64,000 bases of DNA, from the IMG/VR virus record IMGVR_UViG_3300028173_000008. The stretch is one strand, 5' to 3'. Every line of letters starts with the position of its first letter. The stretch's first letter is position 1. The notes under the pieces were generated by a model. The model saw only the letters and a list, made by a program, of their open reading frames with translations. It searched no databases and was not told the origin of the DNA. This document shows positions 2,411 through 57,279 of the stretch, one piece after another. A program made the position numbers and the translations under genes. The DNA comes from an uncultured virus (IMG/VR IMGVR_UViG_3300028173_000008) (lineage: Duplodnaviria; Heunggongvirae; Uroviricota; Caudoviricetes).

Positions 2411-2821
2411 ATGAACAAGAGCCCTAAAACTATCGGCGAGCGCAGTGAAGGCATGGTGCTGGCAGCCCTCTTGAGGGCGGGCAAGGTTGTGTTGCAACCC
2501 TTCGGGGACAACCAACGGTACGACCTTGTGGTGGATGAGGATGGGAAATTCATCCGGGTCCAGTGCAAGACCGCCCGCTTGAAGAACGGCGCTTTGGCCT
2601 TCGATACATGCTCCTCTCAAACCCATCGGGGGAAGGGGAAGCAAGATTACAGGGGGCAAGCGGACTTGTTTGGGGTCTATTCTCCTGACAGGGACGCCGT
2701 GTACCTTGTACCCGTTGAGGATGTCGGGGTTACCCAAGCCCGACTCAGGCTGTCCAAACCTCGTAATGGCCAATCCAAAGGCGTCCGCTTTGCGGCGGAT
2801 TATCTTCTCGATCTGGGGTAG
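2411..2821 (+). CDS. PD-(D/E)XK endonuclease (I-Ssp6803I/PDDEXK_5-like)
   Basis: GERSE..V...L..PFGDNQRYDLVVD..RVQCKT..Y..ADLFGVY. Confidence 0.85.
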   Translation: MNKSPKTIGERSEGMVLAALLRAGKVVLQPFGDNQRYDLVVDEDGKFIRVQCKTARLKNGALAFDTCSSQTHRGKGKQDYRGQADLFGVYSPDRDAVYLVPVEDVGVTQARLRLSKPRNGQSKGVRFAADYLLDLG

Positions 2822-2884
2822 CTCAATAGGTAGAGCGCCGGTCTGTTAAATCGGTTGTTGAGGGTTCAAGTCCCTCCCCCAGAG
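2812..2884 (+). tRNA. tRNA-Asn(GTT), cassette cargo
   Basis: cloverleaf; ORF stop TAG = positions 8-10. Confidence 0.9.
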
Positions 2885-2931
2885 CTACAAGCTCCTCATG
2901 TTGTGGGTTCGAGTCCCACCGCCGGAGCTTG

Positions 2932-3431
2932 AAGGGCTGGCTGTTCCCTTTCGGGGGTTCAGTCTGTGACGGGCCGTATGGGGTCCGTAGGAAACATCGG
3001 AGCAATCCGGTGGAAGGGGAGTCCTTGTCACAGGCCCCCGCCAGTCACCTCTCGGGGTGGTTGGTCCGTCCATGCAAGCCGTAGGTAGCCCGGTCAGGGC
3101 GGGTCGTCCACCAAAGGCGGCTCTAGTCCCGAGTCTGGGGTTGGCCCCACCGACAGGTGGGTGAAGCATGGCCTGTCAGCGATGGCAGTCATGCGAAGGA
3201 TAGGCGGGGACGCCTTGAGCCAACCAATCCAACTGGACGAAGGAGGATTCCCAAGCGGCAGTCGGTCAGTTTGAGGGGTGGGAGCCCTGAAGGCGGTCGG
3301 CATGTAGAGGGGCGAAGGGTGAAATCCCCGGAGTCCTGAAGACAGGGTAAAGCCCGCCGGGGCGAATACCAGAGGACGTGTTGCATTCCCCTCCTCAAAA
3401 GGGAAGGGAACGACTGGCAGGGCACGCCCTT
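2932..3431 (+). ncRNA. large (~500 nt) structured non-coding RNA
   Basis: no credible ORF; AAGGGC/GCCCTT ends pair; UUCG/GNRA-type hairpins; flanked by tRNAs. Confidence 0.55.
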
Positions 3432-3437
3432 ATGACA

Positions 3438-3510
3438 TGCGAATTAGCTCAGTTGGTAGAGCGCATCCTTCGTAGGGATGAGGTCGTTGGTTCAAGTCCA
3501 ACCCTTGCAA
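3438..3510 (+). tRNA. tRNA-Thr(CGT), imperfect acceptor stem
   Basis: good D, anticodon and T arms; 2 acceptor mismatches. Confidence 0.6.
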
Positions 3511-3845
3511 ACAAAGGAAAGACCCTGCCGGTCTGTGTGGTAAGTGACCTAATCCCGTCCCCGCAAGGGAAGGCGGGCCGGTGAAGCCCCCAAGGTGGAG
3601 CCGGTTGGTGGGAAGCTGAAGCGTAGGGGCGGCCACCCCTGCCGGATGTGGAAAGCCGATGCAGCACAGGCGACGAGGGAAACGCCACCCTCCAACAAAG
3701 GCGGTCACGACTGGCTACCGGGGAGACCCGGTGGACACGGGGAGAACTTGGCGGGGGACCGTCAAGGTAATGCCCTGAGAGGCCGGTTATGAAAACGGGT
3801 AGTCTCACCGTTCCTCATTCTCCCCTCCCTTCGGGGCGGGGACTA
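3511..3845 (+). ncRNA. ~330 nt structured non-coding RNA
   Basis: CCCC-GCAA-GGGG, CCGGG-gaga-CCCGG, CCC-TTCG-GGG hairpins; between tRNAs. Confidence 0.45.
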
Positions 3846-37298: not shown

Positions 37299-37664
37299 TG
37301 GTGGAGGTGCGGGGAATCGAACCCCGGTCCTAAGATGCCTACGCCAACGCACTACGCTCATTTCCCGTGTTTATCCCGCACGGGCAAGGTGCTTCGATCC
37401 TCAACGCACATGCTGCTGTTAGTCATCGCCTTCAGGTAGCCGCCTGCCCGCTATCCTGAACGCCAACCCGTTTCTGCTGTAACCTCACGCCCCGAATCGG
37501 GTGCTCTGACGTGAGAATGAAGCACCAGCACAGTCTTTCGACTACGCTGCCGCCTGCATCGGAAGGGTCTCGTTGGCAATTAAGCCTTTGCCGTCTGTAA
37601 CGCCCGACAGCACTCGGAACGAACGTTTAGCCTCGTACACCCCAGTCGAAACCAGTACACCCCC
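37299..37664 (-). ncRNA. ssrA: tmRNA, tag ANETLPMQAAA*
   Basis: GGGGGTGTACTGGTTTCGAC 5' end; GGTTCGATTCCCCGCACCTCCACCA 3' end; tag at 37577-37542. Confidence 0.95.
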
Positions 37665-41496: not shown

Positions 41497-42341
41497 ATGA
41501 CCACCCGTAGCCGGGATCCTGTTTTATGGACACATTCATCTAGTGGCCCCTACCCGTCCGCATAGCGCTGCTCACCCGCTCTTGGCCCAACCCCGATGCC
41601 GAGAGCGTTGCCCTGAAAAGAGCTTCTGCATTCCTTGGCGTGTAAGGCCGTGACGTTGGCAGAACAGATTGAGGGACGGGGTCACTTCGTGTTCAGCCCC
41701 GTCAGGAGAACGGACTTTGGGGTAGGGCTGCTTCTTCTTAGTGCGGCTGATCGCCGCCTTTTCCGCTTCCGTTGGGGAAGCCTTCCGACCACCCGATCCC
41801 ACAGCGTTCTTATTGCCCCGCTGCAAAAGTGACAGGGCTTGCTTCGTTTCTTCTGTATGCTTGTAACCCAGGCTGTTGCCTGCTTCTGGGAGGATGTTGT
41901 ACTTCTTGGCTTTCGGGGTCTTGTCCAACCACTCCTGTTCCTTCTCCAAGAGCTTGTCGTGGGCCGCCTGAACAAGCACAAAGAAGCAAATGTCCTCTTC
42001 ACCCCTCTTGGCAAAGGCTCGTTGTAAGGGGGTGTTATGGTGGGTGCCTTTTCGAAGAAGCCTCCCATGTGCTGAGAACCTCTTGTAGAGATCCACTGCG
42101 GACCCGATGTAGAGCTTCCCCGAAGCCCTACTTCTGATGGCATAGACACCGCTCTTACCGTGTAGCGCAGAATAAGGGGTACCTTTCATGGAAGGGTCCA
42201 ATTTCATAGGCCAAAGATACCACGTTCCTGTTTGGGTTGCACCCTCGGAAGTGCGAACGGCCTACGGCCTCCTTCCTTCAGCAGTGGTGTCCCGAGCTTC
42301 CTCACATCCCTTGCGGGGTAGTGCGTGCCCTCAGTGGTCAT
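41497..42341 (-). ncRNA. rnpB: RNase P RNA (reduced), interrupted by GIY-YIG ORF
   Basis: P1 ATGACCAC/GTGGTCAT; P2 GGGCAC/GTGTCC; P4 GAGGA-AGC(U)CGGGA / ACAGGA-TCCCGGCT with bulged U; CGGGTAGG L15-like; CTAGATGAATG. Confidence 0.8.
41572..42207 (-). CDS. GIY-YIG homing endonuclease with NUMOD3-like motif
   Basis: SGVYAI..YIGSA..KRF..H, EKEQ.WLD, YN, HTEETK. Confidence 0.9.
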   Translation of the reverse strand: MKLDPSMKGTPYSALHGKSGVYAIRSRASGKLYIGSAVDLYKRFSAHGRLLRKGTHHNTPLQRAFAKRGEEDICFFVLVQAAHDKLLEKEQEWLDKTPKAKKYNILPEAGNSLGYKHTEETKQALSLLQRGNKNAVGSGGRKASPTEAEKAAISRTKKKQPYPKVRSPDGAEHEVTPSLNLFCQRHGLTRQGMQKLFSGQRSRHRGWAKSG

Positions 42342-42425
42342 GGTGCCAGAGGGGGGACTCGAACCCCCACGCCTCAAGGACAGACGGTTTTGAACCGACC
42401 GCGTCTACCATTCCGCCACTCTGGC
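42341..42425 (-). tRNA. tRNA-Leu(CAA)
   Basis: cloverleaf, CCA. Confidence 0.88.
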
Positions 42426-43722: not shown

Positions 43723-43778
43723 GGTGCCAGAGGGGGGACTCGAACCCCCACGCCTCAAGGACAGACGGTTTTGAACCG
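43723..43778. repeat. 56-bp exact direct repeat of 42342-42397
   Basis: GGTGCCAGAGGGGGGACTC...TTTTGAACCG. Confidence 0.9.
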
Positions 43779-43807
43779 GATGCGGCTACCAGTTACGCCA
43801 TCCCGGC
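43723..43807 (-). pseudogene. chimeric tRNA-Leu
   Basis: 3' 56 nt identical to 42342-42397; 5' half does not pair properly with it. Confidence 0.75.
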
Positions 43808-48111: not shown

Positions 48112-48374
48112 CCTTTCCTCAACCGTACTCCCCCCTTCAAACGAATAACCAACGACGACGGCACGACGACTCCGTCTTCCGGTCGGCCCATCGGCGGGAC
48201 AACTACTCGAGACTTCGTGCGGTGTGTTCGGAACACGCCCAAGGGGGTTCGGACGGAATCATCCTCTTCCAAGGACAGGAGTGCGTCTGGCAGGCAGAAC
48301 ATGACTGCCCGTACCTGTTCAGCGGGGACACCCGAAAACCGGGCGATCTTCTGTATCAAAAAATCGTATCTCAT
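48108..48374 (-). CDS. HU/IHF-like DNA-binding protein
   Basis: LIQKIA..SG....V.AV, V.TPLGVF, R....P. Confidence 0.65.
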   Translation of the reverse strand: MRYDFLIQKIARFSGVPAEQVRAVMFCLPDALLSLEEDDSVRTPLGVFRTHRTKSRVVVPPMGRPEDGVVVPSSLVIRLKGGVRLRKG

Positions 48375-48485
48375 CTGCACCCTTCCGTAGAGCCCGAGGG
48401 ACTCTCCTACCATACCCTTGGGTTCAATGATCGTCCTATGACGAGGCATAGGTAGAGCGCTCTACGGGACTCTCTGGAGGTCACT

Positions 48486-48935
48486 ATGCCCCAAGGCAAA
48501 CTGTTCAAGATGGCGAGTACGCTCGACGACGCCGTTCTTCGGACTGCCGCACAGGACGAAGATGCACGACGTTTCCTGCTTGCTCTCCACCGGCAGGCCA
48601 AGGGCTGGGACAAGCTCCCGAAGGGCTGGACGCAGGAGAGCGTCAAGAAGTTCTGGTCGTCCCTGACCGGGGACGTGAAGCACAAGGTTACGAAGTGCAT
48701 CAAGGAGATGGACGGGAAGTTCGACGACCCTGGTGCCTTCTGCGCTTCCCTGGCCGACATGGTGACCCCCGGCTGGCGCACCAAGAAGACCGCCTTCAAC
48801 AAGTACAACGCCCCCGAGGTGCTGGCCCAACTGTTCAAGGCCCTTTCCGCCGCCGGGTTGGATGACGCTGTGGCGAACCTCCGGCAACGGAAGGTCCCGC
48901 AGATCGTGGACAAGGCATGGAGGGATCGAGGGTGA
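48486..48935 (+). CDS. hypothetical virion-type protein
   Basis: GGAGG RBS; KMAS/RTAA/KTA motifs. Confidence 0.7.
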   Translation: MPQGKLFKMASTLDDAVLRTAAQDEDARRFLLALHRQAKGWDKLPKGWTQESVKKFWSSLTGDVKHKVTKCIKEMDGKFDDPGAFCASLADMVTPGWRTKKTAFNKYNAPEVLAQLFKALSAAGLDDAVANLRQRKVPQIVDKAWRDRG

Positions 48936-49855
48936 ACAAGCAAGCCGCAGCAGCCGTAGACCCCGTCCGCCAGCGGACTCAGTACACCTGCACTAAAGGG
49001 ATCAACTGGGACGATGCCCCTTTGGGCAAATTGTCTGATGGTGATGTGGCTCGCATGTATAAGGTCGCCCGTCCTGTGGTCTGTAATGCCCGCAATCGAA
49101 GAGGCATCCCGCCCTTCACGTCACGGTATGTAAATGTGGTGTGGGATGATGTTCCTCTTGGTGGTTTTCCAGATGCTGTGCTGGCAAAGGAGCTTGGAGT
49201 GTCCGAGCCCACGGTTTCACGGCATCGTAACCAGAAAGGCATATGCCCCTTCCAGTCAAGGTTCATCACCACTGAGGGGGAGGCTGCACAAAGCTACCCA
49301 GAAGCCCTCATCGATCTTTTTTGGCATGAACAGGACATTGCACATCAATTCCAAGTCCCAATCGGCCCCTACGTGGCTGATTGGGTGGTGGGAAACACCG
49401 TAGTTGAGTACGCAGGGTTCATCGAAAGCCGAACTTTTGGGGACAGGTACCGGGAGAGGCTCGCTGTCAAGGTCTCCTTCTACAAGTCGCAGGGGTGGCA
49501 TGTGCAGGTCATCTACCCCAATGACCTGGAATCTTTCAAGCCCAAAGGTTCGCCTGAAATGACACGGGACATCATCTCAGGAGGTGTTAATTGGTCAGGA
49601 CAACCTCTCGGGAAAATGACGGACATGGATCTTGCATCTCGTCTGGGTGTCGGACAGACGACGGTGTCCCGATGGAGAAACATCTTTGGGATTGCCCCCT
49701 ACAAGAAAAAGAAGCGGGACTGGACTCATGAGCCTCTCGGAAAGATGCCCGACCCGGCACTTGCAGCTCGTTTAGGGGTGAGCAAAGAAACTGTCCGACG
49801 TGCTCGTGTCATGTTCGGGATCCCGTCTTACAGGAGTGTCTGTCATGCAGCGTGA
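48932..49855 (+). CDS. Vsr/DUF559-like endonuclease with repeated HTH modules
   Basis: 4x PLG...D..(L)A HTH-like repeats; PE..FQVPIGPYVADW..VVEYAG; lower GC. Confidence 0.75.
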   Translation: MNKQAAAAVDPVRQRTQYTCTKGINWDDAPLGKLSDGDVARMYKVARPVVCNARNRRGIPPFTSRYVNVVWDDVPLGGFPDAVLAKELGVSEPTVSRHRNQKGICPFQSRFITTEGEAAQSYPEALIDLFWHEQDIAHQFQVPIGPYVADWVVGNTVVEYAGFIESRTFGDRYRERLAVKVSFYKSQGWHVQVIYPNDLESFKPKGSPEMTRDIISGGVNWSGQPLGKMTDMDLASRLGVGQTTVSRWRNIFGIAPYKKKKRDWTHEPLGKMPDPALAARLGVSKETVRRARVMFGIPSYRSVCHAA

Positions 49856-51443
49856 GGCCAAAGCAAACGTGACCCCTGTAAGGCAACGCACTCAATTTTC
49901 GTGCATGAGTTGCTCCATGATGATGTGCCTCAAGGCCAACGGGGTCGACACGAACGAGGACGAGGTGAACCGGGTCATGGGTGCCAAGCCCATGCAGGGT
50001 GCCGCCTGGGAGGAAGCCCTGGCCGCGGCCCAGCACTACGGCATGCGGGCTACCCTCACCGTTCCAGCTACCGTCCAGCAGTTGAAGAAGTGGACTGACC
50101 GGGGCGTCCCCGTGATGATCGCTTGGAACCCCGAAGGCCGGGACTGGTCCCACGCCTCTGTGGTGTTCGACGTGGACGAGGACCTCAACGTCTACGTGGC
50201 CGACCCCAACATCCCGGACCCCGATGAGACCGTCCGCATCGTTCCCAAGGCCGAGTTCTACGGCAAGTGGTACGAGAAGTGGCCGAACTACCTCGTGCGT
50301 CGGCCCGCGATGGCCGTCGAGCGTGAGGTGTCCCCCGAGGGTCGCCAGATGGTCGCCAGCAAGGTGCCCGCCGACGCTGAGCCCGTGAAGGGCACCAAGT
50401 TCTTCGTCTCGAAGAAGCCCTCGAAGAGCCCCTACCGTGGCCAGCCTGAGCAGTTCAAAATCTTCAACGAGCACGGCGGCGTGGTCGGGGGATATCCCGA
50501 CCGGGGTGAAGCCATCGCCAAGGCCAAGAAGATGAAGACGGCCAAGACCCTCATGCAGGTCAAAGTGAAAAACAAGGCCCCTCGTGACCCCGGCGCTGCA
50601 CGCCACGGGAAGCCGGGCGGAGCCGCAGGCGCTCACCACAACCGCGACCGCGACGTGTCCAAAGGGCGGAGCCGCAAGCCCAAGCACAAGAAGCCGATGG
50701 TGGAGCGTGAGGCGTCCCTGTTGGAGAAGCTGGCCCGGATCGACGAGAAGGACATGAACCGGGCCGCCCAACTCCTCCAGTACATGACTGAGAAGGAAGC
50801 GATGAAGCACCTCGTGAAGCAGGGGATGCATCGTCAAAACGCTTTCTTGGCGCTTAAGGCGGGCAAGATCCTCAACAAGGACCATAAGGGGCGCCTCGCC
50901 GCTTCCAAAGAGGCAGGCTACAAGGGGAACCCAGATGGCAAGGACATCTACCCAAACGAGATCGAACACGGGTACGGTGAGCCCATCGCTGGAGGAACTG
51001 ACGTGATGCGACAACTACAGAACAAGCTCATCCATGAACAGGGTGATGCAGTACCACAGCGGCCCGAGAGCCCCCGGATGGCCAGTCAGCTTTCCCTCTC
51101 CTCTGGTAAACCAGACCCCAAGATGACGGCTGCATTGAAGCAACGAGCCGAAAGGAAATTGCTCCGTTCCCGTAGCAAAGGTGATTTTGAGGGGGCATTG
51201 ATGTCGGCTGGTTTCCACGCGAGGAAACACAGCACGACCGCCTTCGTCTATGCAGGCAACAGCTACGGGGCCGGTGTGTGGCGTGTCTCTTTCAAGGCAG
51301 GGGAATACCTGAACCCCATCAACAACACAGGGGTCCGGGTACTGTCAGTGACCCCAGACCTCGACGTGACGGTCTTCCAAATCAAACAACGCCCCAGGAT
51401 GGCCGCCCGTGTGGCCCACCTGTACCTCAAGAGGAGCCAGTAA
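49845..51443 (+). CDS. C39-like cysteine peptidase domain + basic modules
   Basis: Q..QFSC, PVMIAW, HASVV, YVADPN. Confidence 0.75.
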   Translation: MQREAKANVTPVRQRTQFSCMSCSMMMCLKANGVDTNEDEVNRVMGAKPMQGAAWEEALAAAQHYGMRATLTVPATVQQLKKWTDRGVPVMIAWNPEGRDWSHASVVFDVDEDLNVYVADPNIPDPDETVRIVPKAEFYGKWYEKWPNYLVRRPAMAVEREVSPEGRQMVASKVPADAEPVKGTKFFVSKKPSKSPYRGQPEQFKIFNEHGGVVGGYPDRGEAIAKAKKMKTAKTLMQVKVKNKAPRDPGAARHGKPGGAAGAHHNRDRDVSKGRSRKPKHKKPMVEREASLLEKLARIDEKDMNRAAQLLQYMTEKEAMKHLVKQGMHRQNAFLALKAGKILNKDHKGRLAASKEAGYKGNPDGKDIYPNEIEHGYGEPIAGGTDVMRQLQNKLIHEQGDAVPQRPESPRMASQLSLSSGKPDPKMTAALKQRAERKLLRSRSKGDFEGALMSAGFHARKHSTTAFVYAGNSYGAGVWRVSFKAGEYLNPINNTGVRVLSVTPDLDVTVFQIKQRPRMAARVAHLYLKRSQ

Positions 51444-53710
51444 TGGCCGTCAAGCCCCTCACATGGTCCGTAAGCTGGCGGGAGATCGCCGAACGCATCC
51501 TGCTCACCTACGACCTGACCCCCACAGGGAACGGATTGTACCGGGTGAACCTTGATGGCCATTGTTACGGGTCAGCCACCAAAGACAAGGCGGTGGCATG
51601 GGCGCTGGCCGATTTCACGAAGAAGTTGGAGACGGTGATGAAGTCCGTCGCCAAGTCTGCAAGGAGTGATCAGATGAAGAACGCGATGCAGGAACTCCGG
51701 GATCTCGCCGCCAGGTTCACTGAGGGCGAGTCTGTAGACGTGGCCAAGTACCTCCGTGACCACGGCAACCCCGAGGCCGCCGACAAGTGGGAAGCCATGA
51801 ACGAAGAGTACGGCGACCTGCTCAAGAAGGCCGCTAAGAAGCCCCGCCCGGAAGAATACGGCATCGACCCCAGGAAGCATTACGTCTGGGCTGTGGATGA
51901 GGGCGATGCATATGGCCCCTTCAACCCGAAGGATGCCCGGACATTTTTGGACAAGGTCCAGTCGCTGGGGTACAGCGTCCTGATCAAGACCGGCAAGGAA
52001 CTCTTCGACTCCCTGGTGTTCCACAACCGCCTCGACCAAACGACGATCTACCCTCTCCGGGAAGCCCTGAAGAAGTACCGCATCAGGCTCGCTACCGCCT
52101 CTCTAGAGAAGATGGCCTCCTCGATGGAAGAGGGTAAGCTCTACCACTCCACGAAGGTGTCCAGTGACATCGAGGGGTCGTGGTTCTACGCCATCGAGCG
52201 GATGAAGAACGGCAAAATGAAAGGCGTCGTTGTCCACCAAGATGCGGGCCGCAAAGTACCCAACAAGGCGAAGAGCTACATCATCGACAGCCAGTGGGCG
52301 AGCACCGCATGGAAAGAGACCGCCTCCTCCAAGGTCCCTTCCAATGTCATATCCAAGCTCAAGGGTTCGGGCAAGATGGCCTCCGACGTCACCGTCATGT
52401 TAGCGGAGAAGGACGGCAAGCATGTGATGCACAACCTTGCGATGGAAACCCTGGGGAAAATGGCTGCTCTGCTCACAGCCGCCAAGAACACCGAGGGTGA
52501 GTACTGGGGCCGCCGTGCGAAGGACAGTAAGCACGTCAAGATGAAGCCCGCAGAGGCCAAGAAGGTCATCAAGCAGAAGAAAGGGGACGGGAAAGACTGG
52601 CTCGCCGTTTGGTTGGTGCCTCCCGAGTACGTAGACGCCAAGGAGCAGGATTACCGTATCAAGCAGGGTTGGATCAATCCTGTCTGGGAATGGAACCTCG
52701 GTCCTCAGAAGGGTGGGGTCAAGGGACGCACAGCAGCAGCGTCCAACCCACTTCGATGGTCCGTAGACTGGCAAGAGATCGTTGACCGCATCATGGACAC
52801 GTATCCCATTCATCTCACAGGACCGCGTTCCTACGCTGTAGAGAGCCCGTTTGGGTCCGGTGTTCATACACCAGACCTGAATGGAGCTAAGATGTGGGCC
52901 GTAGAAGACTTCGTGAAGCACCTGATGCAAGTGGCCAAGCGAACTCGTGTCAAGCTGGGTAGCACGGCGATGAAGGAACTGGAGAGGATGGCCGACTGGA
53001 AGCCCGGTGAGGTCGACCCTGAAGGTTCGTGGACCGAAGGCGAAGTGTTCACCGACGAAGAGGAGCCCAAACCCGAAGGTTCTATGATCCCCGGTCTGGA
53101 AGAGCGCATGGCCGCCCTGGTCAAGACAGCAGCGGCCCCGTCTGGCCTTTACGGCTACACCAAGCGGGTTCAGGCCGACTGTGAGTCCGCAACCCGCAAG
53201 ATCGCCAAGCGTGCCCTCCTCATCGCCAAGAACGCCTACCGCAAGGATGAGAGGGTGGCGCAGTTCCTGGCCATGCACGCCAAGCGGGCCAAAAGCTCCT
53301 CCGCCCGCATCATCCTGACCGCCCTCAAGGAAATGGCCCCCAAGGTCGCCTCCTACAACGACGACGAAGCCTCGTGGCCCCACATCGCAACGGACAGCCG
53401 GGACGTGATCCTTCAGGCCAAGCGGGCCGGGGTGAGGTCCTACGGGCTGTACGGGTTCCCCACGAAGACTGCCAGCCTCGGCCTGTCCGCCTGCACGCAA
53501 CTCCGTGAGGCCGCAGGGCACGTAGCCTCCGACATGCACGTCCGCCGTGCGGCCAAGCACGCCCTCTACACGGGCTTCCTCAAGCAGCACAGCAAGGAGG
53601 CCAAGTGTCATTACGCACGGCTCCTCCACGCCAGCTACCCGGAGGCCAACACGAAGGTCGCCGCAACCGCACCTTCGACCGTGGCCGGTTGGCTGTCCCA
53701 CGACGAGTAG
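51443..53710 (+). CDS. modular virion-type protein with internal repeats
   Basis: PLTWSVSWREI/PLRWSVDWQEI and GLYGY/GLYGF duplications. Confidence 0.75.
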   Translation: MAVKPLTWSVSWREIAERILLTYDLTPTGNGLYRVNLDGHCYGSATKDKAVAWALADFTKKLETVMKSVAKSARSDQMKNAMQELRDLAARFTEGESVDVAKYLRDHGNPEAADKWEAMNEEYGDLLKKAAKKPRPEEYGIDPRKHYVWAVDEGDAYGPFNPKDARTFLDKVQSLGYSVLIKTGKELFDSLVFHNRLDQTTIYPLREALKKYRIRLATASLEKMASSMEEGKLYHSTKVSSDIEGSWFYAIERMKNGKMKGVVVHQDAGRKVPNKAKSYIIDSQWASTAWKETASSKVPSNVISKLKGSGKMASDVTVMLAEKDGKHVMHNLAMETLGKMAALLTAAKNTEGEYWGRRAKDSKHVKMKPAEAKKVIKQKKGDGKDWLAVWLVPPEYVDAKEQDYRIKQGWINPVWEWNLGPQKGGVKGRTAAASNPLRWSVDWQEIVDRIMDTYPIHLTGPRSYAVESPFGSGVHTPDLNGAKMWAVEDFVKHLMQVAKRTRVKLGSTAMKELERMADWKPGEVDPEGSWTEGEVFTDEEEPKPEGSMIPGLEERMAALVKTAAAPSGLYGYTKRVQADCESATRKIAKRALLIAKNAYRKDERVAQFLAMHAKRAKSSSARIILTALKEMAPKVASYNDDEASWPHIATDSRDVILQAKRAGVRSYGLYGFPTKTASLGLSACTQLREAAGHVASDMHVRRAAKHALYTGFLKQHSKEAKCHYARLLHASYPEANTKVAATAPSTVAGWLSHDE

Positions 53711-53718
53711 GAGGTGCC

Positions 53719-56700
53719 GTGACAGCGACAGATCAGATCCTCCGGCGGGCGGTTGAAGAAGCCGTTGACCTGGAGAAAGAACTCAAGAAAGCGGAGTCCC
53801 TGGTCCCTCAGTCCGTGTGGCTGAAGCTCCGCAAGGCGTTTACCCCCAGGGGTTTGCCGTTCTTCGAGTTCTACATCCTCCTCAAGAGGATCGAGATGGG
53901 CGAAGATGTCCCGGACGACATCCGCAGGATGTTCATGCGGGCCGCCAACCGGCTCCTTCAGATCACCTCCCCCGTAGACGGACGCAACGTCTCTCCGGCC
54001 ATCGCCAATCAGATCGCTGAGATCCGCCCGGAGATGAACATGCTCCTCGGGCGGCTCCTAATGGGCCGGACAGAGGACAACACGACCTGGCGCAAGATCA
54101 CGGAGTTGTTCGTCCCGCTGTTCGTCGCCGTGGCACGGGACAAAGAGGTCTACATCAAGGCCCGCCCCTACGGCCCGAGGCGTTGGGGGATCATCCGCAG
54201 GATGACAGGGAAGCAGGAGAGCGTAGAGAAGCTGCGGGACAACGATCCCGAAGCCTACGCCCTAACCAAAAAGTACAATGCCACGCTGGCCGAGATCGAT
54301 GAGGGCGTCAAAGTACTCATCACCCGTCAGGGCCTGGAACCTGAGACGGGCTTCATCATGGGCCGCCCCGTCCAGTACGGGATCAACCAGGAGACTGGCG
54401 AGAAGCTCATATTCGACCGGGATGGCGACGTCCTGACTCAGGATGAGTATGTCACCAAGCGCCGGGAGAACGCAGAGGCCCGCAAGAAGATGGCGCTCAT
54501 CCCCACCCGCACGGAGGTCCCTGTTCGGGATCTCCTCCGGTTGGACCCCAACGACACTGACCAGCTTCTGGGTGAGATGGAGTGGGTGTCCCTTACAGAT
54601 GACAAGGCCAAACAGGGACGTCTAACCCGCATCTTCCCGGTCAAGCAGAAGCCCACCTTCATCGTGGACGAGGACGGTGACACAGAGGCTCAGTACCACC
54701 CGGTCATCGTGTCCGGGCGGTTCAAGGGCGTCTACCTCGACGACATGGTGAACTCACAGGGCCGCCTCATTGAAGGCACGGCCTACACGTACAGCGCCAC
54801 CACGGGGCACGGCGGTAAGGTCCCCGTCCGCATCGATCCCGCTGACAGGGAGCCCTACGTGACTGTGGCCGACGTGACCACGGTGCGGACGTTCAAAGGC
54901 CGCAAGCTCCGCCAGAAGTCACAGAAGCTCTTCTTGAAGGTGCCCGGGTCCAAGGACTACACGGTGCTCAGGAACGCCCTCAAGGAACTGGCCTGCAACG
55001 TGGGCCGCAAGCGAGGGTGCATCCCAAGCATCACCCACGAGAAGGTGGAGGGCAGCCGTGCGGCAGCCTTCTACCTCGACCCCAAGGACTTCGGCGTCGT
55101 CATGGAGACCCTCCAAGGGATGTCGCTGTCAGCGTCCGCCCTGGAACTGGTCAAGTCCTACTACAAGGACCTCTCCAACGCAGAGGCGGCCACGGCGGAG
55201 GATAACCTTACCAATTACACTGCGGGCAACCTTGGCGGCTTCGTGACCCGCAAGACGGACAGGGAGACGGGCCTCATCAAGCCCTTCGACCTGAACGTGA
55301 TCCAGAAGCAGGCACTGGCCTGGATGGACGCCAACGGCGGGAACGGGGTTCTGGCACCGGAGACGGGCGTGGGTAAGACCCTCATCGCCATCGCAGGGAT
55401 GCAGAAGCTCATCCGGGACGGGCTGGCCGACGAGGATGCCTCCTACACCCGGCCCGACGGCAAAGAGATCCAGACTAACGGACGGTTCCTCTTCGTGTGC
55501 CCGCCTGCCCTCAAGGGCAACCTCCCGAAAGAGATCCGGGCGTTCATCTCGGACTCCAAGGAACTCCGGGCACGGGTAGACATCATCTCGTACTCAGAGT
55601 TCTCCGGGTCGTCCAAGACAGGCAAGCCGCCCTCCCACATCGCTAAGTACTGGAAGCGTCGTCGGTGGAACACGGCCCTCTACGTGGCCATCTACTTCGA
55701 CGAGGCCCACAAGATGCGGAACAGGGAGGCAGGCGCTGCGTCGGCAGCCCTGGACCTGTGGCACCCCCGCAAGATCTGCCTGACCGCCAGCCCTATGGAC
55801 AAGCGCCCCATGGACGCCTACGTCCTGACAGCGATCACGAACAACACGCCCCTGAACGGCCCCTCCATTGAGGCCAAGGACAACCGCAAGGAGATGCGGC
55901 GGTTCAAGGAGCGGTTCTGTGAGACCATCGGTGGCCGCATCGTTGGGGTGAAGACCGACCCCCTCGTCCGCAGGGACCTGCACACATGGGTAAAGCGGAA
56001 CATCTACTACGCCGATAAGCGGAACACAGGGGACGAGCTACCCCCCCTCCAGGCTGAGAACATGGTCGCCGTGATGCCGCCCCAGGTGGAAGACGCCTAC
56101 AGGGCGGTCACCGACCAGTTCGCCTACATGATGAAAGGGCTCGCCACCAGGTTCAAAGACAGGGAGAAAGCGGGGATCTCAGGCCGCCATCCCGACGTAG
56201 AGCGCATCTTCGGCAAGGCGTTCAAGCCCGTCGTCAAGCTGCTCAACGACCTGGCGAACCACCCCGAGATCGCCCTGACGGACATCGCCCACATGATGCG
56301 GACGGAGACGCTCCCCTACCCGGACAAGTTGGGGGACCCGATCCCGCTCCCGCACCAGTTCAAGAGGGCACTCAAGGTCTGGGCTACCAGGTTCTCCCCG
56401 GAGGAGTTGGAGGCGGAGGCCGAACACATCCAGAGTCCGAAGCTCCTGGTGGCCGAAGAGGTCATCCGGGACAAGGTCGATGCCACGGACGGAGCCAGCC
56501 GTGCCCTCCTGTTCACGGACGACACCAGGCTCATCTGGTCGGCGGCCCGTCACATGGCGAAGAAGATCACCGGCTGGCACGCTGTAGCCCTCAAAGACGA
56601 GATCCACTTCATGGACGGGGACGCCCCTATCCAGAAGATCACGTTTGAGATGCCGAGGGACCTCCTGGCCAAGATGAAGCCGGAGAAGCGTGACCAGGTA

Positions 56701-57279
56701 CTCGCCGAGACAGGGGGCGTAACAACGCACACGCTGCCTTTCCATAAGAAGACGTACCGTAGGCACCCCCTGCTCCCTGCGGGCCCCGACAACGTCCATT
56801 ACAAGGCCGACAACTGGCAACAGTTCGTCCTCAAGGAGATCATCACGCCCGACAGGCGGATCAGGACGTTGGCGTTGTACGGCCCGACCTATCAGTACGG
56901 GCACAACCTCCAGGCCTTCGACACGGTCATTCACCTCGACCGGGACGGTTGGAACTCTGAGTCCATGAAGCAGCGGACAGCGAGGGCGTGGCGTCAGGGG
57001 CAAGACCAGCCGGTCGACGAGATCACCATCGACGCAGTCTACGACCCGAACACCCCGGAGGCTCAGACGGAACTTGATGGCACGCTGGACGAGATCCGCA
57101 GGTACTTCCAGGAGATGGACGCTGACGTGTTCAACGCCATCATGCGGGAGGCACAGGGACTGGACCTGGGCGGTGAGTGGGAGGGCCTTGCCCGTCACGA
57201 GTCCTCCAAGACCAGGCTGAACCAGGACATCATGGAACTCATGACTTCGCCCTACGTGGGCCGGGTGAGGGGAGTCTAA
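53719..57279 (+). CDS. SNF2-family helicase-like protein
   Basis: APETGVGKT, DEAH, LTASP, GHNLQ, QRTARAWRQGQ. Confidence 0.88.
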   Translation: MTATDQILRRAVEEAVDLEKELKKAESLVPQSVWLKLRKAFTPRGLPFFEFYILLKRIEMGEDVPDDIRRMFMRAANRLLQITSPVDGRNVSPAIANQIAEIRPEMNMLLGRLLMGRTEDNTTWRKITELFVPLFVAVARDKEVYIKARPYGPRRWGIIRRMTGKQESVEKLRDNDPEAYALTKKYNATLAEIDEGVKVLITRQGLEPETGFIMGRPVQYGINQETGEKLIFDRDGDVLTQDEYVTKRRENAEARKKMALIPTRTEVPVRDLLRLDPNDTDQLLGEMEWVSLTDDKAKQGRLTRIFPVKQKPTFIVDEDGDTEAQYHPVIVSGRFKGVYLDDMVNSQGRLIEGTAYTYSATTGHGGKVPVRIDPADREPYVTVADVTTVRTFKGRKLRQKSQKLFLKVPGSKDYTVLRNALKELACNVGRKRGCIPSITHEKVEGSRAAAFYLDPKDFGVVMETLQGMSLSASALELVKSYYKDLSNAEAATAEDNLTNYTAGNLGGFVTRKTDRETGLIKPFDLNVIQKQALAWMDANGGNGVLAPETGVGKTLIAIAGMQKLIRDGLADEDASYTRPDGKEIQTNGRFLFVCPPALKGNLPKEIRAFISDSKELRARVDIISYSEFSGSSKTGKPPSHIAKYWKRRRWNTALYVAIYFDEAHKMRNREAGAASAALDLWHPRKICLTASPMDKRPMDAYVLTAITNNTPLNGPSIEAKDNRKEMRRFKERFCETIGGRIVGVKTDPLVRRDLHTWVKRNIYYADKRNTGDELPPLQAENMVAVMPPQVEDAYRAVTDQFAYMMKGLATRFKDREKAGISGRHPDVERIFGKAFKPVVKLLNDLANHPEIALTDIAHMMRTETLPYPDKLGDPIPLPHQFKRALKVWATRFSPEELEAEAEHIQSPKLLVAEEVIRDKVDATDGASRALLFTDDTRLIWSAARHMAKKITGWHAVALKDEIHFMDGDAPIQKITFEMPRDLLAKMKPEKRDQVLAETGGVTTHTLPFHKKTYRRHPLLPAGPDNVHYKADNWQQFVLKEIITPDRRIRTLALYGPTYQYGHNLQAFDTVIHLDRDGWNSESMKQRTARAWRQGQDQPVDEITIDAVYDPNTPEAQTELDGTLDEIRRYFQEMDADVFNAIMREAQGLDLGGEWEGLARHESSKTRLNQDIMELMTSPYVGRVRGV

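Follow-up and report, generated by a model that had tools for sequence, protein, structure and literature searches.

The window analysed here is a 64,000-nt stretch of an uncultured virus (IMG/VR record IMGVR_UViG_3300028173_000008). It contains an open reading frame (ORF) for a predicted homing nuclease directly before a gene for a C39-like peptidase. The nuclease ORF begins with a copy of the peptidase 5′ end, and the peptidase gene itself begins with another, divergent copy. This arrangement probably reflects homing by end replacement, in which a cassette of nuclease body and replacement 5′ end cuts empty alleles near a Cys codon of the peptidase gene and is copied in as the repair template, with no splicing. 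This reading is built on the layout of the locus, its empty alleles, the scattered distribution of the cassette, the altered spelling of the target, and a parallel in the GIY-YIG family. The best reading of the element is as a 5′-end mirror of the yeast WHO elements and of fungal mORFs.

The nuclease-like ORF at 48932–49855 starts with GTG and reads VNKQAAAAVDPVRQRTQYTC, followed by TKGINW. Its first 20 codons end in PVRQRTQYTC. The peptidase ORF (49845–51443) starts with MQREAKANVTPVRQRTQFSC (MQREAK...), followed by MSCSMMM. The sequence-only reading had claimed one motif at both places, spelled with different codons. The motif is indeed present in both ORFs: the 10-codon copies at 48962–48991 and 49875–49904 are identical at 8 of 10 residues and 19 of 30 nucleotides. 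The spelling differs as claimed, but two residues are changed as well (Y>F and T>S). Elsewhere in the 64-kb window, read in all six frames, no 10-residue stretch matches above 6/10. The copy pair is not picked up by a repeat finder, as its divergence is too high at the DNA level. A search of the 76-kb contig found neither a second copy of the nuclease nor any protein-level duplicated terminus besides the peptidase start.

The ATG at 49845 overlaps the end of the nuclease ORF by 11 nt, and the nuclease stop is at 49853–49855. The span 48992–49904 is not divisible by three. The features are listed in Table 1, where the right edge of the cassette is resolved only to a few codons around Cys. A scan of 48300–50100 found no sigma-70 promoter, and one weak terminator-like site there scores under the shuffle mean. 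Two 151-nt pieces come from an RNA run (one of the four runs compared), and both lie within the nuclease ORF.

Table 1. Features of the peptidase locus, followed by other features of the window.
Feature	Position	Strand	Remark
Upstream host gene, 149 aa, no known family	48486..48935	+	TGA overlaps GTG of nuclease ORF
GGAGG, ribosome-binding-site-like motif	48919..48923	+	8 nt 5′ of GTG 48932; putative original peptidase start signal
Old peptidase 5′ end, 20 codons, now nuclease N-terminus	48932..48991	+	Cys codon TGC 48989–48991
Nuclease-like ORF, 307 aa	48932..49855	+	Old start, two helix-turn-helix (HTH)-like repeats, core, two HTH-like repeats
Predicted Vsr/DUF559-like nuclease core	49256..49546	+	Residues ~109–205
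Putative mobile cassette, 913 bp (nuclease body and replacement 5′ end)	48992..49904	+	Based on GC content at third codon positions and block identities
AGGAG, ribosome-binding-site-like motif inside last nuclease codons	49832..49836	+	8 nt 5′ of ATG 49845
Replacement peptidase 5′ end, 20 codons	49845..49904	+	Cys codon 49902–49904
Intact peptidase gene, 532 aa	49845..51443	+	N-terminal C39-like domain
GOLLD RNA	3371–3811		
Transfer-messenger RNA (tmRNA)	37299–37664		
GIY-YIG/NUMOD3 ORF	41572–42207		

The two copies differ in composition. GC content at third codon positions (GC3) takes the values 0.81 (upstream gene), 0.74 (first copy), 0.55 (nuclease body), 0.50 (second copy), and 0.88 (peptidase body). 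Of the 33 empty alleles described below, 26 are nearer to the first copy and 7 to the second, as compared over the last 10 codons. The comparison over 16 codons is weaker, with 19 versus 11 of 31 empty alleles favouring the first copy. The replacement of the window was also compared with that of another occupied locus, L009. They share 14 of 15 nucleotides in each of the first two blocks (28/30 over the first 10 codons), but only 7, 9, and 10 of 15 in the blocks directly past Cys. This difference indicates that the second copy travels with the nuclease. Judged by these comparisons, the first copy is the old start of the host gene, and the second is a passenger of the nuclease that was not respelled in this genome. 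That the nuclease took over the original start, as had been proposed, is borne out by the GGAGG before its GTG, by the overlap of this GTG with the upstream stop, and by the host-type first copy. The proposal of a recoded 5′ end survives in part. Its spelling is divergent, but it appears to be inherited with the element, as in L009, and not recoded here.

Viral and metagenome contigs were scanned, and 45 distinct loci that include the Cys region were obtained, 12 occupied and 33 empty. Occupied loci have a nuclease directly before the peptidase, and empty loci have neither nuclease homolog in up to 1.7 kb upstream. Three IMG/VR contigs with 100% identical proteins are counted as one allele. 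Excluded from both sets are exact duplicates, L120 (same start as L008), L203 (a decayed element), six loci without the peptidase Cys region (L061–L063, L069, L071, and L072), and L205, L207, and L208, which have intact peptidase starts and whose upstream was not screened.

Empty loci read straight across the proposed join, for example AKAAVDPVRQRTQYSC-MSCSMMMCLRANG in L028. In the empty locus L037, the peptidase is a direct fusion with the end module of the window's upstream gene. In L041, which is occupied, the C-terminal module of the same upstream gene stands 5′ of the old start. Empty alleles joining 48991 to 49905 had been set as the test of the insertion. By codon, all 33 loci are colinear with this joint, but no nucleotide-identical one is among them, and the joint is absent from the assembled contigs of 4 of the 20 listed runs. 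A 301-nt contig of depth 16 (run X15, record 6) is ~86% identical to the peptidase start at 49857–49930 and has unrelated sequence upstream. It suggests a co-occurring relative without the cassette.

A Vsr-like nuclease is found directly before the peptidase start in 11 distinct loci, and the contig of L062 ends just past such a start. Every close Vsr-like homolog with downstream DNA abuts a peptidase start, and the distant homologs in L071 and L072 adjoin other genes. In the loci read, the stop of the nuclease and the replacement start either overlap or lie almost side by side, and no tandem copies of the element are seen. GGAG, GAGG, or AGGA precedes the replacement start in 10 of the 12 occupied loci, by a loose pattern counted without a control. 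The distant nuclease of L071 (2477–3331) overlaps the start of a tRNA nucleotidyltransferase-like gene, whose family was assigned by eye; this may be the same strategy at another gene.

An old-start fragment is present in 8/12 occupied loci and in 7/11 Vsr-like loci. It extends to or into the Cys codon in the window, L009, and L073. Shorter old starts are seen in L064 (out of frame), L067, L058, and L041; those of L041 and L058 are 20 nt long, have near-background scores, and were identified by their position at the ORF start. Twelve of the 20 full Vsr-like proteins begin with the peptidase N-terminus. A wide search added two more such proteins (P0159 and P0204), of which P0159 runs 24 residues beyond Cys. 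The old start of P0159 resembles the start of L070 (20/40 identical). The junctions of the family range from ~12 codons before to 24 codons after Cys. Insertion at the predicted catalytic-Cys codon, as originally proposed, holds for the clade of this allele but does not hold for the family.

The old starts of P0159 and of L073 (~815 nt before the Cys codon) themselves look element-type, which hints at re-invasion of resistant alleles. LR745208.1 (L203) is a decayed element: its region 2558–3019 has HTH repeats and no nuclease core, and overlaps a divergent peptidase start. In L004, a nuclease-free duplicate start, MKKQSKANLTPKRQ, lies ~727 nt 5′ of the peptidase start and is joined to sequence from past the peptidase domain. 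It resembles the outcome of a deletion from one R-Q codon pair to another. The GIY-YIG protein P0045 starts almost like the L004 duplicate. P0004, a cluster representative, is identical to the nuclease of the window save for its first residues, MKTLTAAAAV instead of VNKQAAAAV. Either a recent transfer to a different upstream context or a variant of the assembly could account for this.

The second ORF matches PF13529 (C39_2) with 27.5 bits at a cut-off of 24 (atlas 0.97). Q14, C20, H103, and D120 are conserved (Gln-x5-Cys, His, and Asp); the His motif is present in 45/45 loci and the Asp motif in 43/45. We take these four residues to form the usual C39-like pattern, with the catalytic roles that this pattern presumably implies. 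Since the second ORF encodes a C39-like domain with Cys20 in this pattern, the duplicated stretch ends at the predicted catalytic Cys.

The target spelling differs between empty and occupied loci. CGnCARCG, the spelling of R-Q-R at codons Cys-7 to Cys-5, is seen in 25/33 empty loci and in 0/12 intact peptidase genes of occupied loci. Arg at Cys-5 is found in 32/33 empty versus 4/12 occupied loci, and TAC at Cys-2 in 23/33 versus 2/12. More broadly, the codon spelling of R-Q-R-x-Q-Y is altered in occupied genes. GC3 drops in the 15 codons before Cys by a mean of −0.24 in occupied and −0.08 in empty loci (Mann-Whitney p 0.005). From the Cys codon onward there is little difference, and most of the divergence falls within the 20 codons next to the nuclease. 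This distribution suggests a cleavage site near the nuclease gene. The starts of two empty loci, L037 and L117, have QFSC spelling, with an AGA codon in L117, and no nuclease upstream. These are possibly alleles after nuclease loss.

A second nuclease family, unrelated to the first, shows the same layout at the same peptidase gene, as far as its sequences tell. The L103 ORF (GIY-YIG/NUMOD3) begins with MMDRRTAKADVAP, leads on to the GIY motif, and has an overlap with a replacement start. This replacement reads VRPMRQTTQYNC, which is the same as in L064, where the enzyme is Vsr-like. Among 14 GIY-YIG homologs with >50% identity, 11 have the peptidase N-terminus as their beginning, truncated at several points (judged by eye). 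The viral scan found no close GIY-YIG locus besides L103.

The distribution of the element was examined on a peptidase tree based on the region after Cys (42 rows). The occupied label requires 9 changes, at least 6 of them forced by starred branches. Occupied loci form one clade in 0/200 bootstrap trees, and their clustering is no stronger than that of shuffled labels. The nuclease tree conflicts with this one: L067 and L073 have sister peptidases (100/91), but their nucleases belong to different starred clades. A starred nuclease clade unites P0005, P0006, and the window protein, which have a common YTC junction and differing first residues. A single insertion that spread with crossovers within the old start would be expected to leave this pattern.

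The nuclease ORF was modelled by AlphaFold2 from a 22-sequence alignment (mean predicted local distance difference test score, pLDDT, 86). It shows two HTH-like repeats, then a core at residues ~109–205, then two further repeats; the captured old-start residues have low pLDDT and are disordered. The top Foldseek match in PDB is the catalytic domain of I-Bth0305I (3r3p; prob 1.0, E 0.011), followed by ngo0050 and Vsr. A wide structure search (VIA) aligned 84 residues with 3r3p at Z 8.6 (root-mean-square deviation 3.5) and gave Z 8.1 for Vsr (1cw0). The structure matches also include viral models that bear the names VSR, DUF559, or homing endonuclease. E124, D150, and E159 are invariant in 22 homologs. 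E124 and D150 are 26 residues apart, the same spacing as between E170 and D196 of I-Bth0305I, and E159-Y-A-G comes after them. By prediction, the ORF encodes a Vsr-type homing nuclease, which we do not file as EDxHD.

The HTH-like repeats dominate the family matches of the ORF. For the core, comparison with Pfam, PHROGs, and PDB sequences yielded nothing beyond a DUF559 match at E 0.12, in one homolog, and spurious matches to CoREST. No relative of the nuclease was found in GTDB genomes, and annotated phages gave one record, itself unannotated.

A course of events can be proposed from these observations. During co-infection, the predicted nuclease would cut an empty allele near the Cys codon, at a site straddling the junction. 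Repair would copy the cassette into the cut allele, with the peptidase body as the right homology arm. The old-start fragment could serve as the left homology arm and as the source of translation signals. As the outcome, the nuclease would have the start of the recipient and the peptidase the start of the cassette, and the peptidase would stay whole. The carrier could be immune by two means: its intact gene has an altered left half of the site, and its old-start fragment has no right half. The old start of the window keeps CGnCARCG, and thus the model would need a site spanning the junction. New old-start fragments would likely be produced when the left broken end is joined to the 5′ end of the nuclease gene without long homology. 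Such joining is proposed because the upstream neighbours differ between these phages, and it would explain the many different junctions.

Several points weigh against homing by end replacement. The nearest empty allele is only ~79% identical in protein. Four of the 12 occupied loci (L026, L065, L068, and L070) have no detectable old start, so an old start is not required. CGnCARCG was chosen post hoc, and the loci are related, so the p-values overstate. AT-rich composition on the nuclease side may contribute to the spelling shift, and some empty loci (L037 and L117) carry element-like spelling. No clear palindrome centre is seen around the Cys codon of empty alleles (best mean 4.0 of 8). The peptidase tree does not distinguish gains of the element from losses. 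The GIY-YIG homologs are known as proteins alone, with DNA context for L103 only. Finally, nuclease activity is uncertain because EDxHD is incomplete, because no Foldseek match in PDB has E ≤ 0.001, and because two RAP-type mitoribosome domains outscore I-Bth0305I (Z 10.2 and 8.9). The His and the second Asp of EDxHD have no conserved counterpart at the H213/D222 spacing, as judged by sequence spacing only.

The loci without an old start, whose nucleases have their own starts, would fit the main alternative, an ordinary free-standing homing endonuclease of the T4 seg/mob type. Such an enzyme would lie beside its target gene and carry a resistant allele of this neighbour with it, and the old start would be an incidental scar or a source of translation signals only. 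The widely varying lengths of the fragments fit it too, and co-conversion of neighbours is established for T4, as described in a review (PMC2988022). This explanation is unlikely, considering that old starts occur in 8/12 loci and in 11/14 GIY-YIG homologs and that, in the loci read, nuclease stop and replacement start overlap or almost touch. Moreover, the T4 enzymes described there cut hundreds to thousands of bp off, whereas the divergence here is within ~20 codons beside the nuclease. The clade with one junction and differing first residues, as expected from crossovers inside the fragment, also speaks against it. Less probable still is a domesticated DNA-binding regulator, or a weapon against co-infection, with the peptidase-like N-terminus as a targeting or processing tag. 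The dominance of the four HTH-like repeats, the incomplete EDxHD, and the mostly in-frame fragments would suit such a role. The out-of-frame fragment of L064, the several loci without a fragment, and the variable lengths would not, nor would the same pattern in the unrelated GIY-YIG enzymes, the patchy occurrence on the tree, and the decayed copy. Interference with competing phages could be a side effect of homing.

Two more explanations have hardly any probability. Removal of the insert at the RNA or protein level, by an intron, an intein, or a bypass, would rejoin 48991 to 49905 and restore an in-frame peptidase of the empty type. Rfam gives no intron match in 48400–50400 at E 10, nor in the window. 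Coding sequence fills the whole insert, which is 913 bp long and has a stop codon, and the complete second start with its ribosome-binding motif would be needless if the insert were spliced. Just as improbable is that the peptidase start was duplicated locally in tandem in this genome and later respelled where it stood, an unrelated gene having come to lie between the copies. The nuclease-free duplicate of L004 is of this kind in appearance, but is explained by deletion between R-Q pairs. The 28/30 nucleotides shared with the L009 replacement, against 7–10 of 15 in the next peptidase blocks, largely refute this duplication, and many lineages, with two nuclease families, show the pattern again. 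As candidate element types, introns of groups I and II were rejected (no ribozyme core by Rfam; coding end to end), and so was an intein (913 bp, stop at 49853–49855, separate start at 49845).

The window appears to be part of the genome of a very large phage. It carries 51 tRNA genes and genes for tmRNA, GroEL, and SNF2, and its relatives are on viral contigs of up to 618 kb. Runs with this stretch are labelled marine or seawater metagenome (20 listed, 14 flagged as possible sources). Two near-identical tRNA-Leu(CAA) genes (42341–42425 and 43723–43807) lie ~1.4 kb apart. The genes around the peptidase (48486–57279 and relatives) are composed of shuffled modules, with short K/R-T/Q/V-A motifs at the module borders. 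The peptidase domain begins after a motif of this type, and its C-terminal fusion partners are very different. This module-shuffled region could be a virion-processing system.

Homing by end replacement at this locus can be compared with known systems. WHO elements replace the 3′ half of yeast FBA1 (PMC7282813) and have been described as a rare third category of homing element (bioRxiv 10.64898/2026.08.13.744650). They share with the present element a nuclease gene (here predicted) accompanied by a divergent piece of the host gene, which restores that gene without splicing. They also share a displaced old piece beyond the nuclease, a proposed homology arm (here in 8/12 occupied loci), and a target region diversified in carriers. 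WHO enzymes are HO-related LAGLIDADG/zinc-finger proteins of nuclear, eukaryotic elements that form tandem clusters, and allele-specific cutting is shown for them. Here, by contrast, the 5′ end of a phage C39-like peptidase gene is replaced, the old piece is the own start of the nuclease, and the enzymes are Vsr-like or GIY-YIG.

Fungal mitochondrial mORFs are reported for Glomus atp6, atp9, cox2, and nad3, Allomyces atp6, and Ophiostoma rps3 (PMC3630166 and PMC4019555). As in the present case, an intron-less endonuclease ORF brings a foreign terminus and displaces the native one, and a hybrid gene results. The mORFs described in these sources replace C-termini, in mitochondria. An N-terminal duplication of atp9 beside GIY genes is mentioned in PMC7487136.

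Among phages, free-standing nucleases include T4 seg/mob enzymes, Hef, mobE of Aeh1 in nrdA, and mobA of T4 in gene 60 (PMC2988022), and nuclease genes of ICP1 are also described (PMC10448857). These systems resemble the present element in that an intron-less nuclease gene overlaps its neighbours, has conserved codons as its target (putative here), and is linked to allele exchange; in the T4 type, as here, it also lies beside its target gene. The four loci without an old start look exactly like this type. The T4-type and ICP1 nucleases, as far as these articles describe them, differ in that their cut is made at a site distant from the nuclease gene, or the host gene ends up as two polypeptides. 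The accessible text of the T4 review (PMC2988022) contains no replacement-terminus cassette, and "duplicat" does not occur in it. I-Bth0305I is intron-encoded in recA (PMC3239194; PDB 3r3p). Based on that account, it resembles the present protein in its Vsr-like fold (predicted here) and its N-terminal HTH-type DNA-binding parts, but the protein studied here lacks the conserved His and second Asp at the expected spacing and has extra C-terminal repeats. In the literature searched, which included few subscription papers and no supplements, no phage description of such an end-replacing cassette was found. Added here are the convergence of two nuclease families, the allele statistics, and the variable junctions.

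It can be speculated, somewhat tentatively, that homing elements which take over gene starts without splicing form a general class in jumbo phages. Vsr-like and GIY-YIG enzymes would converge on the peptidase gene and compete by re-invading resistant alleles, diversifying the residues beside the catalytic Cys as a phage counterpart, in mirror image, to the arms race between WHO and FBA1. Since dozens of its alleles, empty or occupied, are at hand, and two unrelated nucleases share one site, the peptidase gene is a compact, testable system on the bacterial side, which offers 60-bp targets and natural pairs of putatively sensitive and resistant alleles. The proteins are candidates for new site-specific nucleases with an unusual Vsr-like active site. 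Homing by end replacement would also explain orphan duplicated N-termini in phage annotation, and it would provide a route by which selfish nucleases swap and diversify sequence near an active site between phages.

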